Assembly: GCA_963718915.1 (NCBI GenBank)
Contig: CAVRAI010000010.1
Location: 1-32,000, forward strand
Source of the DNA: an uncultured Chloroflexia bacterium
Lineage (GTDB): Bacteria; Chloroflexota; Ktedonobacteria; Ktedonobacterales; JADMIN01
DNA length: 32,000 nucleotides
Direction of reading: 5' to 3'
The notes beneath the pieces were generated by a model, which worked only from the letters and a program-made list of their open reading frames with translations, was not told the DNA's origin and did no database searches. The stretch's first letter is position 1; every line of letters starts with the position of its first letter. The position numbers and the translations under genes are program-made. Of this stretch, positions 5,766-11,093 are shown in pieces.

Positions 5766-6794
5766 CTATGTGCCGCCACAGGCAGGCGCGCCAGCGAGAG
5801 GGCCGGTCTTCGTCTGCGCGAAGAGCCAGGGGTAGAGCGGATTGTCTGTCTGTGCTGTCTGGCCGTATACCTGCGGCCAGATCGTGTGGGACATTCCAGC
5901 TAATTCGGTATAGCAGGGCGTTCCACCGGCGGCGCGGAGCGCCTGAATCATAGTGCGCGACCCAGCGACGGGGACGCGGTTATCATTCGCGCCGTGAAAC
6001 GCCCAGAGTGGCAGGCGTACTATACGGCTGGCGAGCGCGGGGTCGCCTGAGCCTGAGACGGGGATGGCCGCGGCAAATAGCGTTGGCCAGCGTTCGATGC
6101 TATCCCACACCCCAAAGCCACCCATAGAGATACCGGTAATGTAGAGGCGATTGGCGTCGATACCGGGATAGCGCTGCTGGACGAGCGCCACGATGTTGAT
6201 AGCCATCTGGAGCGAGGCCGACGGCTGGCTTGCCAGCGCATAGGAGCTGACGGTGGGAGAGACGTTGACGTAGCGGTTGTTCCCAACCACCTGCGGCACG
6301 ACGACGAAGCAGGGCCAGCGTGTCTGCACATTCGCCCCGCCAGTTGCTACCCAGGGAGTGACATACGATGCGTTGATGGCGAGGGCACGATTCTGGGCCG
6401 CGGTCTGCTGCGGGTTGGCGCGCTCGCCGCCGCCCTGAAGGATGAGGACCAGCGGATACTGTTGCTCTGGATTGCCGCTTGTATATCCCTGTGGCACATA
6501 GAGATAGAACGCCATCTGGGTATTGTCCGGGCCAGCGTACTGGCAGGAGAGGAAAGCGTCAGAGCCGCTGGCCGAGATGTCAGAACATGAGATCGTGACG
6601 TCGGAAGGCAGAACAATGGTCGCGGGCGTTGGCGGCATGGTCGGCGGCACGGATGGCGTCACCCTGGATGTGGCCCCATGAGCGCTGGCGCACCCGCTCA
6701 AGATACTCGTCAGCGCGCCGATCAGCGACGCCAGCATGATCAACATCCTTCCACGCCGTGCGCGCCACCCACCTGCGCTAGCCTTCCTGCTCAT
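5766..6794 (-). CDS. Exported alpha/beta-hydrolase esterase, predicted lipoprotein
   Basis: Signal peptide with lipobox LSGC (…LIGALTSILSGCASA). Nucleophile elbow GISMGG, plus a later FHGANDNRVP and SH. GAGGA lies 5-6 nt upstream of ATG 6794. Confidence 0.8.
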   Translation of the reverse strand: MSRKASAGGWRARRGRMLIMLASLIGALTSILSGCASAHGATSRVTPSVPPTMPPTPATIVLPSDVTISCSDISASGSDAFLSCQYAGPDNTQMAFYLYVPQGYTSGNPEQQYPLVLILQGGGERANPQQTAAQNRALAINASYVTPWVATGGANVQTRWPCFVVVPQVVGNNRYVNVSPTVSSYALASQPSASLQMAINIVALVQQRYPGIDANRLYITGISMGGFGVWDSIERWPTLFAAAIPVSGSGDPALASRIVRLPLWAFHGANDNRVPVAGSRTMIQALRAAGGTPCYTELAGMSHTIWPQVYGQTAQTDNPLYPWLFAQTKTGPLAGAPACGGT

Positions 6795-6859
6795 GCATTT
6801 CCTCGATCGTTTCTATGCGCTTGCCAATGTCTCCCAGGCCATCGCGGACCTTCCATGCG

Positions 6860-8179
6860 TCACCCCTCTTTGCGATGGGCCACCACCGCGCCGCGTTCCG
6901 CCACAGTGGCCGAGCGCACCGCTGGCCCGACCTCTCGCGCATTGGGCAACCGCAGAACGCGCGCCAGAGATTGCGCCGCGTGACCGCATGCCTGTGCCGC
7001 GTTGGCGAGCCAGCGGCCAGGGATCCGCTCGCGCGAGAGGGCGCATGGATGGCCAATCAGGCGACTTAGCAGTGGCGTGTAGAGGAAGACGACGCATAGA
7101 GCGACCGTCACGCCCGCCACCAGCGCCCAGGTGAGCGCGACCCGCAGCGGCTCCGGCAGCAGCGCTGGCAGGTTGGGGACGAGATAGACCATCGCCTGCT
7201 CAAGAATGTACGCATGGATGAGGTAGATGCCGAACGACGCATTGGAGAGCAGCACCCAGAAGCCCGCGCCTCGTGGCGGATGTGGCGCGCGGCGAGTCGC
7301 CCAGCGCGTGGCCAGCCAGTAGAGGAACGCCGCGATCCCGATGGCATAGATCACCATCGCCGGTTGAAAGACCGAGATGCCATAGCCGATACTCTTATGC
7401 CCGACCGCTGTCTGAAGCCAGAGATTGCCCCAGAGCAGCGCCAGCCCCAGCGCGAACCCGGCGACGACCAGCTTTCCGTGGCGCAGGACGAACGCGCGCA
7501 CCTGTGGCATATAGAGCGCCGCGACGCCACCGAGGACGGCGTAGAACTGGTAGAGCAGGAGAACGCGCGACTGATTCTGATTGATGAAGACGCCGACTGG
7601 TGTCCCGGAGAATGGCCCTGTCTGCACGAACTGGTAATCGAGCGCGAGCATGACCACCTGCAACGCGAAACTGACGCCCAGCAGCACCCAGGGACGCTTT
7701 CCAGCCGAGGTCATCAGACGGAGAAACCAGGGGAGGATCAAGTAAAACTCCAGCGTCAGCAGAATGTAGTACAGCTGGAACGAGGCGACGCCCGTCAGGA
7801 TATCGCTGATCGCGCGCACGCCCCATTGCCCGGCGGGCAGCGCTGGCTTCGACGCCACTTCGTAGAAGAGGCTCCAGAGCACGTAGGGAAGCAAGACGCC
7901 CAGGCCGCGTTTACGCCAGAACGCTTTCACGTGAAAGGGGCGGTTGACATACCCGTAGACCATCACAAAGGCGGTGATGGCGATGAATATCTCGCGCGTG
8001 AAGTGGAGCGCGCTCACCACCGCGTTCTGCGCCAGCAGGCTCGCGTTTGTGTGCGCCAGAATCACCGTAAATGAGACGGCATGCACGCCAACAACGCAGA
8101 TCGCCGTCACCGCGCGGATGGCGTCTATCTCATAGAGTCGCCCGCGCCGGACCACCTTGTGCGCGTCGTGCTCAGCCAT
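6860..8179 (-). CDS. Acyltransferase family 3 (AT3) integral-membrane O-acyltransferase
   Basis: Polytopic membrane protein with the typical AT3 N-terminus: LYEIDAIRAVTAICVVGVHAV ... REIFIAITAFVMVYGY. ATG 8179 overlaps the upstream ligase stop by 8 nt (ATGGCTGA). Confidence 0.85.
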   Translation of the reverse strand: MAEHDAHKVVRRGRLYEIDAIRAVTAICVVGVHAVSFTVILAHTNASLLAQNAVVSALHFTREIFIAITAFVMVYGYVNRPFHVKAFWRKRGLGVLLPYVLWSLFYEVASKPALPAGQWGVRAISDILTGVASFQLYYILLTLEFYLILPWFLRLMTSAGKRPWVLLGVSFALQVVMLALDYQFVQTGPFSGTPVGVFINQNQSRVLLLYQFYAVLGGVAALYMPQVRAFVLRHGKLVVAGFALGLALLWGNLWLQTAVGHKSIGYGISVFQPAMVIYAIGIAAFLYWLATRWATRRAPHPPRGAGFWVLLSNASFGIYLIHAYILEQAMVYLVPNLPALLPEPLRVALTWALVAGVTVALCVVFLYTPLLSRLIGHPCALSRERIPGRWLANAAQACGHAAQSLARVLRLPNAREVGPAVRSATVAERGAVVAHRKEG

Positions 8180-9877: not shown

Positions 9878-10276
9878 TCAATACATCATCCGGGGATCGA
9901 AGTAGTATTTGAACTCCAGCAAATTGTTCGAGGGGTCGCGCAACAGGAAGGTCAGATGTTCCTCGATCTTGCCCTTGAAGCGCGTCATCGGCTCCTGGAA
10001 GAAGGGTAATTCACGCGCGTGCGCGAGATGGAGCAAGGCGTCGAACTCGCTTCTCTCCTTGAACGTGATGCCGAAGTGGCGCGGGTACACCTGTGGATCG
10101 CGATCATAGTCGTCTGTGAGGTGACACACCACCTGATCGCCGAAGAAATCCAGGGTGATACGGTCTGAATAGCGACGCGCCAGCTTGCAGCCGAGCCTCG
10201 TCACATAGAAGTCGAAGGCGGCATCGAGGTCGCCGCAGGGGATGGCAAGGTGAAAGACATTATGGATATCGCGCAT
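9878..10276 (-). CDS. Small VOC-fold protein (extradiol-dioxygenase-like, COG3565-type)
   Basis: FHLAIPCGDLDAAFDFYVTRLGC ... HFGITF ... FLLRDPSNNLLEFKYY. ATG 10276 (MRDIHNVF) has GAAAGG about 10 nt upstream. The track start 10288 is a GTG abutting that SD. Confidence 0.75.
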   Translation of the reverse strand: MRDIHNVFHLAIPCGDLDAAFDFYVTRLGCKLARRYSDRITLDFFGDQVVCHLTDDYDRDPQVYPRHFGITFKERSEFDALLHLAHARELPFFQEPMTRFKGKIEEHLTFLLRDPSNNLLEFKYYFDPRMMY

Positions 10277-10310
10277 GGTCAGGGACACCTTTCTCGCTAG
10301 CTCTCAGGGT

Positions 10311-11093
10311 TTATTGCTCGACTGTCTCGAAGGTCAGCAAGGTGTCGGAGCGCAGGCCAAGCCGGAGTGTTTCCAGCGCGATGGCGTCTGCGAAGGGGAT
10401 GTTGGCAAGGTTGACATCACATCCCAGCCGCCGGATAAACGTGGCTTGCAGCGACTTATTGGGCGCCTCGAAGATCAGCGTGTTGCTGTCGATGCCGGAT
10501 TCCACAATCTCCTCGATCAGCCCGTAGCGTAGCGTGCCATCGGGGCGACAGATGCCGCTTGTCCCGCTCTCACGCGCTTCGAGCAAGACGCGCGTGGCGC
10601 CCGCCTCGATATCCTGGCGAATGAAGGTGATCCACATCGCGGGCGAGAGCAGCTGTGACTGTTCGCTATCCTTGTAGCCAACCTCGCTCAAGACGCGAAA
10701 CTCAGCGGCAAAGTCCGCGATGACCTGCGCCTTATCCTGATTGCTGAGGTCAATCGTGCCATTGGAGACCTCGACATAGCGGCAGCCAAAGCGTCTGCAG
10801 TAGGCGTAGTACGCGCCAAGTTTGCGCTGCTGATAGAACTTCTCGAAGAGGGTGCCGCCGAAGAAATAGTCAACTCCGTGCCGCTGCAGAGCGCTAATCT
10901 TACGCTCCAACTGGTCGGTGATGACCGAGGTGCCCCAGCCAAATTTGACGAGGTCAATCAATGGCGCGGCGCTCTCGATCACGTCTTCAAAATACTGCAT
11001 GGGCAACCCTGGATCGATCAGGATGCTCATACCGCGCGCCCGTGGCTTGACACTGCGCTCAGGCAGCGTGAGTCCCGTCACTTGCATGTTCAT
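10311..11093 (-). CDS. comA: (2R)-phospho-3-sulfolactate synthase (ComA family)
   Basis: Family motifs read by eye: KPRARGMSILIDPG, IDLVKFGWGTS, FFGGTLFE, RYVEVSNGTIDL, VLSEVGYKD. Start at ATG 11093 (MNMQVTGL) has AGAGGAGAAG immediately upstream. The 49-codon 5' extension in the track is not protein-like. Confidence 0.85.
   Translation of the reverse strand: MNMQVTGLTLPERSVKPRARGMSILIDPGLPMQYFEDVIESAAPLIDLVKFGWGTSVITDQLERKISALQRHGVDYFFGGTLFEKFYQQRKLGAYYAYCRRFGCRYVEVSNGTIDLSNQDKAQVIADFAAEFRVLSEVGYKDSEQSQLLSPAMWITFIRQDIEAGATRVLLEARESGTSGICRPDGTLRYGLIEEIVESGIDSNTLIFEAPNKSLQATFIRRLGCDVNLANIPFADAIALETLRLGLRSDTLLTFETVEQ

Follow-up and report, generated by a model that had tools for sequence, protein, structure and literature searches.

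A ComA-linked acyltransferase operon in Ktedonobacterales that may install a sulfonated acyl group outside the cytoplasm

The 32,000-nucleotide stretch of Chloroflexota DNA analysed here (from contig CAVRAI010000010.1; hereafter the window) carries on its minus strand five closely packed genes that encode, in order of transcription, a ComA-family phosphosulfolactate synthase, a small VOC protein, an acyl-CoA ligase, an AT3 membrane acyltransferase and an exported alpha/beta-hydrolase. We propose that this operon produces a short acid that bears a sulfonate, joins it to coenzyme A (CoA) and, by means of the AT3 protein, transfers the acyl group to an extracytoplasmic acceptor, under the control of an adjacent two-component system; we consider the chances of this proposal to be evenly balanced. 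An earlier note on this DNA, made by a model from the letters of the sequence, had described the locus as a sulfonate-dependent, Dlt-like envelope acylation system. The core of that idea survives in that the ComA-linked set of activating, AT3 and exported hydrolase genes is co-conserved, but sulfonate dependence is not proven, and one subgroup of Ktedonobacterales has the ligase, AT3 and hydrolase genes together with no ComA gene close by.

A gene set conserved across three phyla

Two sets of loci were compared. The ComA-seeded set consists of 80 genome loci around ComA homologues, searched with the window proteins and with their flanking open reading frames (ORFs) clustered de novo, and the ligase-seeded set consists of 80 metagenome loci fetched with an alignment of 16 ligase orthologues (single loci are cited by number, such as L003, where they have to be told apart). 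The nearest relatives of the window locus are found in metagenome-assembled genomes (MAGs) of Ktedonobacterales (Chloroflexota), and one ligase cluster and one AT3 cluster accompany ComA-VOC in all of the closer Ktedonobacterales loci. The same two clusters are present in three Alicyclobacillus species, in Frankia sp. AgB1.9, in six Acidimicrobiia MAGs, and in Trebonia and other Streptosporangiales. When strict coverage filters are applied to the ComA-seeded set, every locus with a full-length orthologous ligase (17/17) has an AT3 gene within 4.5 kb and a ComA gene within 7 kb, and an exported hydrolase gene is found in 12 of the 17. Four gene orders occur: ComA-VOC-Lig-AT3, AT3-Lig-ComA-VOC, ComA-VOC-AT3-Lig and Lig-AT3-X-Est-ComA (Lig being the ligase). 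The gene set is found again and again, in dozens of loci that belong to three phyla, so that its clustering is far beyond chance, and the fact that linkage has been kept despite the reshuffled order argues for selection on the linkage itself.

The ligase-seeded metagenome scan places AT3 next to the ligase in 36 of 57 full-length ligase matches, the remaining 21 being mostly contigs that end too soon or paralogues of about 40% identity. ComA is present in 18 of these 36 ligase-AT3 loci, a hydrolase in 18 and a histidine kinase in 11. The actinobacterial layout is regular, with a divergent kinase followed by a histidine phosphatase, ComA, VOC, ligase, AT3 and hydrolase (or the same set with ligase and AT3 in reversed order). 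Conservation of the neighbourhood across Chloroflexota and Actinomycetota, which the earlier note had put forward for checking, was therefore found: ComA-VOC-ligase-AT3 recurs there in varied order, and it extends to Alicyclobacillus.

The ComA-VOC pair itself has a wide distribution. VOC lies directly downstream of ComA in 63 of the 80 ComA-seeded loci, and these pairs are found in the Bacillota, Cyanobacteriota, Actinomycetota, Chloroflexota, Nitrospinota, Bacteroidota, Omnitrophota and Campylobacterota, and also in Methylomonas. Several of the cyanobacterial loci have genes for a CheA-like hybrid kinase and a methyl-accepting chemotaxis protein near ComA-VOC. HtrA-like (trypsin-PDZ) protease genes are situated no more than a few kb from the module or from ComA-VOC in L007, L042, L017, L019 and L100, a recurrence that may mark an envelope-stress regulon or may be coincidence.

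Candidate enzymes for making and activating the acid

The window ComA matches PF02679 over the entire model (277.8 bits against a cut-off of 25.2, E 1e-82, model positions 1-243/243). Its similarity to B. subtilis YitD (1U83, E 9e-94) exceeds that to M. jannaschii ComA (1QWG, E 1e-46), its core aligns to both without gaps, and against TIGR03849, the archaeal ComA equivalog, it scores 227.7 bits, below the cut-off of 280; on these comparisons it is a member of the YitD-like clade of bacteria. Enzymes of this family are established to add sulfite to phosphoenolpyruvate (PEP), giving (2R)-phosphosulfolactate. The earlier note had allowed that the protein might lack catalytic residues, but the family-invariant K, E and R columns of a 24-sequence alignment are all kept, a result that refers to alignment columns and not to the catalytic roles of single residues as given in structure papers. 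Like the Xcb pathway to coenzyme M (CoM; XcbB1-E1, PMC9457059), the operon begins with a ComA homologue, but the aspartase-fold XcbC1, the pyridoxal-phosphate enzyme and the other Xcb genes are missing from the window. The ComA proteins of the CoM plasmids of alkene oxidisers are, moreover, only 36–41% identical to this clade (tblastn of plasmids with the Trebonia L081 ComA as query), and a coenzyme M pathway was rejected.

ComA proteins of the Trebonia type are very abundant in soil metagenomes; the best 120 matches are all at least 83% identical, and a single 90%-identity cluster has 757 member sequences. Locus L009 contains a second ComA-like gene (approximately 2550-3500, upstream of the ligase) whose product is 26% identical to the window ComA and which heads a Lig-AT3-FMN oxidase-hydrolase-hydrolase-ComA locus.

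The window VOC protein is recognised by PF00903 (49.4 bits, cut-off 20.6, E 7.5e-13) and shares about 70% of its residues with 3RRI, a structural-genomics entry (E 5e-59). Identity among VOC proteins of different phyla ranges from 56 to 95%, so that this protein is conserved at least as well as ComA. In 55 orthologues the invariant residues are H13, H71 and E125, together with R38, R39, R43, R70 and R103. The two histidines and the glutamate are the usual VOC metal positions (ligands of the His/His/Glu type), and the combination of this triad with five arginines would fit a small polyanionic substrate.

What happens in loci that have no VOC is also informative. L009, L010, L015 and L136 instead contain, in the operon, a flavin mononucleotide (FMN)-dependent L-2-hydroxy-acid oxidase, closest to L-lactate and glycolate oxidases, whose gene lies between those for AT3 and hydrolase, with ComA after the hydrolase. 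The presence of this oxidase in the place of VOC points to chemistry at the 2-hydroxy-acid carbon. Since (2R)-sulfolactate is an L-configured acid, the oxidase could plausibly act on it; enzymes of this kind form a 2-oxo acid and H2O2, from which the acid one carbon shorter results (the lactate-monooxygenase outcome). The window itself encodes a homologue of FMN-dependent 2-hydroxy-acid dehydrogenases/oxidases on the plus strand at 24561-25751, about 14 kb from the operon, which is 42% identical to the FMN oxidase of the variant Ktedonobacterales loci.

A ComB-ComA-VOC triad is found far beyond spore formers (L043, L044, L047, L049, L082 and the Bacillaceae, and also Nitrospinales, Bacteroidota, Omnitrophota, Sulfurimonas and Methylomonas), while the B. 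subtilis group has ComB-ComA without VOC; taken together, these distributions suggest that VOC shifts the end product away from sulfolactate. Relatives of VOC on plasmids proved by tblastn to be distant paralogues (36–44% identical) with no ComA or sulfonate genes nearby, and this line was dropped; the carriers are megaplasmids of Ralstonia, Cupriavidus and Azospirillum and a Geminocystis plasmid.

The ligase matches PF00501 (E 1e-47) and PF13193 (E 4e-21), and its translation contains the motif TSGTTGDPKG and a C-terminal GKLNR in the catalytic-lysine region. Its NCBIfam matches (FadD7, MenE and malonyl-CoA-synthase-like) all fall below the equivalog cut-offs, and the solved proteins nearest to an intact orthologue are the oxalate-CoA ligases 5IE0, 6QJZ and 8AFF from plants and yeast, MenE, and the malonyl-CoA ligase 3NYQ. 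Judged by these relatives, the enzyme is a CoA ligase for short anionic acids and not a fatty-acid enzyme or one that serves amino acids and carrier proteins. Sulfoacetate is an isostere of malonate.

In the window copy the first 50 or so codons of the ligase (from the ATG at 9816) and the remainder are in different frames, owing to one extra base near 9679, where the window reads ACGTATCCGG and the aligned L003 sequence reads ACCTA-CCGG. The reference for this comparison, L003 (DATBIB010000053.1), is a 97%-related locus from a Ktedonobacterales MAG in which the ligase occupies a single uninterrupted frame. Removal of the base opens a protein of 547 aa that is 83% identical to the L003 ligase, so the "repaired ligase" of the earlier note is well founded. 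Programmed frameshifting at this position was rejected, as there is no slippery sequence and the orthologue is encoded in one frame. Either the gene has been inactivated by mutation very recently or the extra base is a sequencing or consensus error, and the system may thus be inactive here. Indeed, one could read the locus in this genome as a decaying, non-functional remnant with the ligase as a pseudogene, given that a one-nucleotide insertion splits the frame and lies outside any homopolymer run. We find this possible but doubtful: the other four window genes are intact and 85–97% identical to those of L003, whose own ligase is intact, and the fact that the whole 547-codon frame reopens when one base is removed fits a very recent mutation or a consensus error. 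In any case, such decay would bear on the state of this copy and not on the nature of the system.

Proposed membrane transfer and the exported partner

The fourth protein matches PF01757 over residues 16-366 (77.4 bits, cut-off 31, E 1.4e-21) and has multiple hydrophobic segments. The motif R22-X10-H33 in its first transmembrane helix (TMH) is conserved in 24 orthologues, and the RXXR motif is inexact in the window protein (WRKRG). In OafA the R/K-X10-H residues are essential and have been proposed to contact acyl-CoA (PMC7448272). AT3 proteins use acyl-CoA donors, among which acetyl, propionyl, succinyl, isovaleryl and others are listed, and their acceptors include extracytoplasmic glycans (PMC9558356); a further source likewise describes them as acyl-CoA users (PMC12423673). 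In fused AT3 proteins an 11th TMH and a domain on the outside are required, the partner carrying out the final transfer (PMC9558356, PMC7448272), and whether stand-alone AT3 proteins need a partner is a question raised in a review of the family that mentions neither a ligase nor a sulfonated acyl group (PMC9558356).

The candidate partner here is the hydrolase, whose gene lies downstream of AT3 in Ktedonobacterales. It resembles the T. maritima esterase 3DOH (E 5e-35) and matches several alpha/beta-hydrolase Pfam families as well as NCBIfam models of esterases of the polyhydroxybutyrate (PHB) depolymerase type. The lipobox and GxSxG motif ascribed to it earlier are both there: the N-terminus (...LTSILSGCASAHG) has hydrophobic residues 15-38 ending in ILSGC, and a single GxSxG is found at residue 221. 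By the lipobox pattern [LVI][ASTVI][GAS]C the protein is a predicted lipoprotein, and the L003 hydrolase has the same ILSGC.

Three kinds of exported hydrolase are found beside AT3. The window family (cluster 12) is confined to Ktedonobacterales; a second alpha/beta-hydrolase family (cluster 16), 28–31% identical to it, occurs in Ktedonobacterales, Acidimicrobiia and Trebonia; and SGNH/GDSL proteins occupy the same position in Acidimicrobiia loci only. An exported hydrolase partner, as the earlier note had it, is thus usually present, but its family varies. The most telling case is Trebonia kvetii (L081), whose AT3 protein of 724 aa consists of an AT3 domain, an extra TMH (433-461) and a C-terminal hydrolase domain with GYSNGG (GxSxG), a layout of AT3, 11th TMH and outside domain that is also that of the AT3-SGNH proteins. 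The hydrolase domain, which Pfam did not recognise, is 48% identical to the stand-alone cluster-16 gene product of the same locus and 25–30% identical to those of other phyla. This fusion is independent evidence that the two proteins act jointly outside the cell. If so, AT3 proteins could pair with alpha/beta-hydrolase as well as with SGNH partners, which bears on the question of stand-alone AT3 proteins.

Probable regulator and layout of the locus

A sensor histidine kinase and an OmpR-family response regulator are encoded convergently with the end of the operon in both the window and L003, and in the window the stop codon of the kinase gene is 7 nt from that of the hydrolase gene. The association is a recurrent one. 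A histidine kinase adjoins the ligase-AT3 genes in Ktedonobacterales, whichever of the two gene orders these have, as well as in Alicyclobacillus and many actinobacterial loci; a response-regulator cluster lies beside 13 related loci; the kinase and regulator are upstream in L010, L015, L096 and L136 and downstream of ComA in L009 and L022; and a divergent kinase is found in eleven actinobacterial metagenome loci. Because of this linkage we take the two-component system at 3370-5758 to be the probable regulator of the operon. The earlier list of genes was right as to the five members of the operon but missed these two regulatory genes, whose linkage to the module extends over several phyla.

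In Alicyclobacillus kakegawensis and A. shizuokensis (L013, L023; 11400-16300) a response regulator, a histidine kinase, an ATP-binding cassette (ABC) ATPase and an FtsX permease of 673 aa are encoded directly downstream of AT3-Lig-ComA-VOC. This is an arrangement like that of the peptide-sensing Bce and GraRS-VraFG systems, and a major facilitator superfamily (MFS) transporter gene lies upstream of AT3 in these loci.

The coordinates of the operon and its regulator are collected in Table 1.

Table 1. Position and assignment of the operon genes, the neighbouring two-component genes and a weak promoter match in the window
Feature	Coordinates	Strand	Basis
Phosphosulfolactate synthase of the ComA family, 260 aa, heads the operon	10311..11093	-	PF02679
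Small single-domain VOC (glyoxalase-fold) protein, ~132 aa	9878..10276 (alternative GTG start 10288)	-	PF00903
ANL-superfamily acyl-CoA ligase, frame broken by 1-nt insertion ~9679	8172..9816	-	PF00501 + PF13193
AT3 (Acyl_transf_3) integral-membrane acyltransferase, stand-alone, 439 aa	6860..8179	-	PF01757
Exported alpha/beta-hydrolase, predicted lipoprotein (PHB-depolymerase/esterase-like), 342 aa	5766..6794	-	Pfam and NCBIfam esterase matches
Sensor histidine kinase (HAMP-HisKA-HATPase), convergent with operon end, probable regulator	4094..5758	+	Pfam
OmpR-family response regulator, partner of the histidine kinase	3370..4122	+	PF00072 + PF00486
Weak sigma-70-like promoter match upstream of ComA	11269..11296	-	9/12 consensus positions

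Most of what the earlier note said of the layout was recovered. ORF calls gave all five minus-strand ORFs at 5766-11093; the intergenic gaps of 34, 61 and 65 nt and the 8-nt overlap of ligase and AT3 are as it had them, and this spacing bears out an operon-like packing; the motifs that it quoted are present in the translations; and Pfam profile searches returned its family for each of the five proteins. Its statement that every gene has its own Shine-Dalgarno sequence holds for ComA, whose ATG at 11093 is preceded by a strong AGAGGAG, and for the hydrolase (GAGGA), but the signals before VOC, ligase and AT3 are weak. The overlap and the short gaps suggest a single transcript. A terminator scan found no terminator-like site between the five genes and one short hairpin inside the AT3 gene. 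The promoter match upstream of ComA is weak evidence, because the scan found 3 sites in the region where 1.4 are expected by chance. G+C content across the region is unremarkable, an Rfam search of the window matched no RNA family, and an exact-sequence look-up of ComA (with two choices of start) and AT3 found no identical record in a large protein collection.

The gene divergent from the operon (11428-13035, plus strand) does encode a pentapeptide-repeat protein, as had been noted; it is 535 aa long and its C-terminal ~130 residues resemble a membrane domain. The gene probably does not belong to the system, because the ORF at the matching upstream position in L003 belongs to another cluster. 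Beyond it, two plus-strand ORFs overlap by about 175 nt, one (13100-14236) encoding a membrane protein without a Pfam match and the other (14061-15656) a phosphoglucomutase/phosphomannomutase, the true start of which is probably further downstream than listed.

Discussion

In the mechanism that we propose, ComA would make (2R)-phosphosulfolactate and a phosphatase encoded elsewhere in the genome would remove the phosphate, a role that would fall to ComB in Bacillota and to the histidine phosphatase in Actinomycetota. VOC would then convert sulfolactate or phosphosulfolactate, our best guess being an oxidative decarboxylation to sulfoacetate, and the ligase would form the CoA thioester of the resulting small anionic acid, that is, sulfoacetyl-CoA or sulfolactyl-CoA. 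The AT3 protein would take the acyl-CoA at the cytoplasmic face and move the acyl group across the membrane, where the hydrolase lipoprotein would either complete the transfer to the acceptor, in the manner of the SGNH domain of OatA/OafA, or trim the modification. The acceptor would probably be a wall glycan or a membrane-anchored one, and the product a sulfonate ester substituent that would be anionic at any pH. That the acid is sulfonated we infer from the linkage to ComA and from a precedent in Streptomyces; that it would be sulfoacetate rather than sulfolactate is suggested by the product of that Streptomyces pathway, by the substitution of an oxidase for VOC, and by the malonate/oxalate type of the ligase.

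The precedent is the misaugamycin cluster of Streptomyces, in which misNOPQ encode an acyl carrier protein (ACP), a ligase that forms acyl-CoA, a synthase for phosphosulfolactate, together with a glyoxalase (PMC9136965). These four genes are predicted to supply the N-terminal 2-sulfoacetyl group of misaugamycin-B; their role is a prediction only, while the structure of the acyl group was established by NMR, and sulfite feeding favours this sulfonated congener (PMC9136965). The likeness lies in the presence of ComA, a glyoxalase or VOC protein and an acyl-CoA ligase in one operon. However, the mis cassette has an ACP and feeds a cytoplasmic N-acylation by a nonribosomal peptide synthetase (NRPS), whereas the window has no ACP and has AT3 and an exported hydrolase instead, which implies that the transfer takes place beyond the cytoplasm. 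In view of this precedent, a sulfoacetyl group is at least as likely as a sulfolactyl group. The earlier note knew of no description of its gene combination. This has to be qualified, since ACP, ligase, ComA and glyoxalase have been described together; full-text literature searches found ComA and glyoxalase joined in that paper (PMC9136965) and found no paper that joins ComA to AT3 or to envelope acylation. No mis-type cassette was found in the plasmid collection by tblastn searches, and a protein search for the Streptomyces cassette with the Trebonia ComA as query gave 120 best matches that were all Trebonia-like.

Comparison with known acylation systems places the transfer part of the operon among AT3 systems of the OatA/OafA/OpgC type, which we regard as the proper frame because the ligase is similar to CoA ligases for small dicarboxylates and because acyl-CoA is the donor of AT3 proteins (PMC9558356, PMC12423673). 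With OatA, OafA and OafB the window shares the PF01757 domain, the R/K-X10-H motif, the acyl-CoA donor and an extracytoplasmic partner with a serine-hydrolase fold (PMC7448272, PMC9558356). The differences are that the window AT3 stands alone, without a C-terminal SGNH domain, its partner being an alpha/beta-hydrolase and usually a separate lipoprotein, and that the donor in OatA/OafA is acetyl-CoA from central metabolism, whereas here it is apparently a dedicated acid both made and activated by the operon. OpgC/MdoC, ExoH and mycobacterial SucT are likewise stand-alone AT3 proteins, and they add an anionic acyl group to envelope glycans (PMC9558356, PMC10503756), and opgC is controlled by two-component systems (cited in PMC9558356). 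Nonetheless, they draw succinyl-CoA from the tricarboxylic acid cycle, have no linked ligase or donor genes, and bring in their charge as a carboxylate and not as a sulfonate.

On the side of acid synthesis, a known relative is the yit operon of B. subtilis, in which YitD is the ComA protein closest to that of the window (1U83) and YitC is ComB. Spore sulfolactate reportedly depends on YitD, a result ascribed to Graham et al. in 2002. There the product is free sulfolactate, the B. subtilis group lacks VOC, and no Bacillaceae locus has the ligase or AT3.

Several observations weigh against the mechanism proposed here, or against parts of it. The ligase frame is broken in the window copy. The window contains neither a phosphatase gene nor sulfite-generating genes; a search of it for ComB, a histidine phosphatase, phosphoadenylyl-sulfate (PAPS) reductase, SGNH proteins and the second hydrolase family found none of these, the only match being the FMN_dh homologue ~14 kb away, and the absence from the window of ComB, ComC and a carrier protein was correctly given in the earlier note. 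Glycosyltransferase or polymer-synthesis genes are not consistently linked to the module. VOC is present in ComB-ComA-VOC operons of likely anaerobes (Omnitrophota and Sulfurimonas), which argues against a VOC reaction that strictly depends on O2. In a subgroup of Ktedonobacterales (L087-L103, ligase 50–54% identical) the Lig-AT3-hydrolase trio has no ComA or VOC within up to 8 kb, so that the transfer part can stand alone and might use another acid; in one of these loci (L100) an extracytoplasmic-function (ECF) sigma factor and an MFS transporter precede the trio and an HtrA-like protease follows it. Lastly, most ComA-VOC pairs, such as those of Bacillaceae and cyanobacteria, are without ligase and AT3. 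The Bacillaceae context consists of PAPS reductase, ATP sulfurylase, adenylyl-sulfate (APS) kinase, ComB, ComA and VOC, and in the cyanobacterial loci L018, L020, L028, L030 and L050 a gene for a TauE/SafE-family sulfite/sulfonate exporter lies just upstream of ComA-VOC.

These last observations are what would be expected if the operon were two independent modules that happen to be neighbours, ComA-VOC and a phosphatase making, as in Bacillus, a free soluble sulfonate (for instance a spore solute, a compatible solute or a product for export) while ligase, AT3 and hydrolase acylate an envelope glycan with some ordinary small acid, for example malonate, oxalate or succinate. ComA-VOC lacks ligase-AT3 in most loci, being accompanied instead by ComB and sulfate activation in Bacillaceae and by TauE in cyanobacteria; about ten Ktedonobacterales metagenome contigs have Lig-AT3-hydrolase without a nearby ComA; and the nearest solved relatives of the ligase use oxalate or malonate. 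Since the parts are separable in this way, the explanation keeps appreciable weight, although we think it unlikely. In three phyla the two modules have stayed side by side and in the same orientation although the genes were rearranged repeatedly, each of the 17 genome loci with an orthologous ligase has ComA no further than 7 kb away, the mis cassette joins ComA, glyoxalase and ligase for the sake of a sulfonated acyl group (PMC9136965), and the 8-nt overlap and short gaps suggest that the genes share one transcript.

It is also worth considering that the AT3 protein might O-acylate a sugar of a secreted small molecule or glycolipid, as CarE, MdmB and AcyA do on macrolides, with the esterase as a self-resistance or maturation enzyme. 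AT3 proteins do acylate macrolide sugars and Nod factors (PMC9558356), the sole experimental link between ComA, glyoxalase and ligase concerns an antibiotic (PMC9136965), and MFS transporter genes lie inside the Alicyclobacillus locus and one Ktedonobacterales locus. Yet neither the window nor the related loci have genes for a polyketide synthase, an NRPS, a glycosyltransferase or other biosynthetic enzymes beside the module, which is located on chromosomes and is spread vertically through entire orders, and its companions are of an envelope type (lipoprotein hydrolase, sensor kinase, HtrA-like proteases, Bce-like ABC system), which together make this explanation quite improbable.

The Dlt system, with which the locus had been compared from the outset, shares with it an ATP-dependent activation step in the cytoplasm, a polytopic acyltransferase in the membrane and an exported protein of hydrolase fold. 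Staphylococcal Dlt is controlled by a two-component system that senses the envelope and has an ABC module, and the response regulator, kinase, ABC ATPase and FtsX permease next to the module in Alicyclobacillus recall that regulation. On the other hand, Dlt depends on the carrier DltC and on DltB, an MBOAT protein, and it adds a cationic group where the window system would add an anionic one. The window membrane protein has no MBOAT Pfam match, being an AT3 protein (PF01757), and no carrier protein was found in the window, where the gaps are at most 65 nt, or in the conserved clusters flanking the ComA-seeded loci; this refers to a scan in which not all small ORFs were examined for PP-binding domains and in which the ligase-seeded loci were searched with the module proteins only. 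What remains of the Dlt analogy is therefore its logic of activation, membrane transfer and exported hydrolase, the carrier and the MBOAT protein being absent and the ligase being of the CoA type. A literal Dlt-like pathway, in which a carrier encoded elsewhere is loaded with sulfolactate that the membrane protein passes to teichoic acid, would share this logic and could point to the ACP of the mis cassette (PMC9136965), but it is very improbable given that neither the window nor the conserved clusters flanking ComA-seeded loci hold a carrier gene, that the membrane protein is not of the MBOAT type, that AT3 proteins are described as acyl-CoA users (PMC12423673), and that the closest relatives of the ligase are CoA ligases.

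Returning to the proposal of a sulfonated acyl-CoA donor and its transfer by AT3, we can sketch, tentatively and with well under even confidence, what it would mean beyond this locus. Monoderm soil bacteria of three phyla (Ktedonobacterales, several actinobacterial orders and some Alicyclobacillus) may attach sulfoacetyl or sulfolactyl groups in ester linkage to a glycopolymer of the envelope, in which case the ComA-linked VOC protein would be a new enzyme that makes the acyl precursor, the malonate/oxalate-type ligase, AT3 and alpha/beta-hydrolase would install it, and an envelope-sensing two-component system would control the process. What the locus predicts, in short, is a pathway that makes a sulfonated acyl-CoA donor and is coupled directly to a transmembrane acyltransferase of the AT3 type.

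Bacteria that do not produce coenzyme M widely carry ComA homologues, and the pathway, if true, would provide a function for these homologues outside CoM producers, as well as a reaction for the highly conserved VOC protein, of which a solved structure is at hand (3RRI). It would also be the first case of a cell wall modified with a sulfonated acyl group, and sulfonate esters would form a new chemical class among bacterial envelope modifications. The carriers of the full module (Alicyclobacillus, Trebonia, Acidimicrobiia and the Ktedonobacterales of soil and peat) are, we presume, largely acid-tolerant, and it would make sense for the physiology of such organisms to carry a substituent that keeps its negative charge at low pH.

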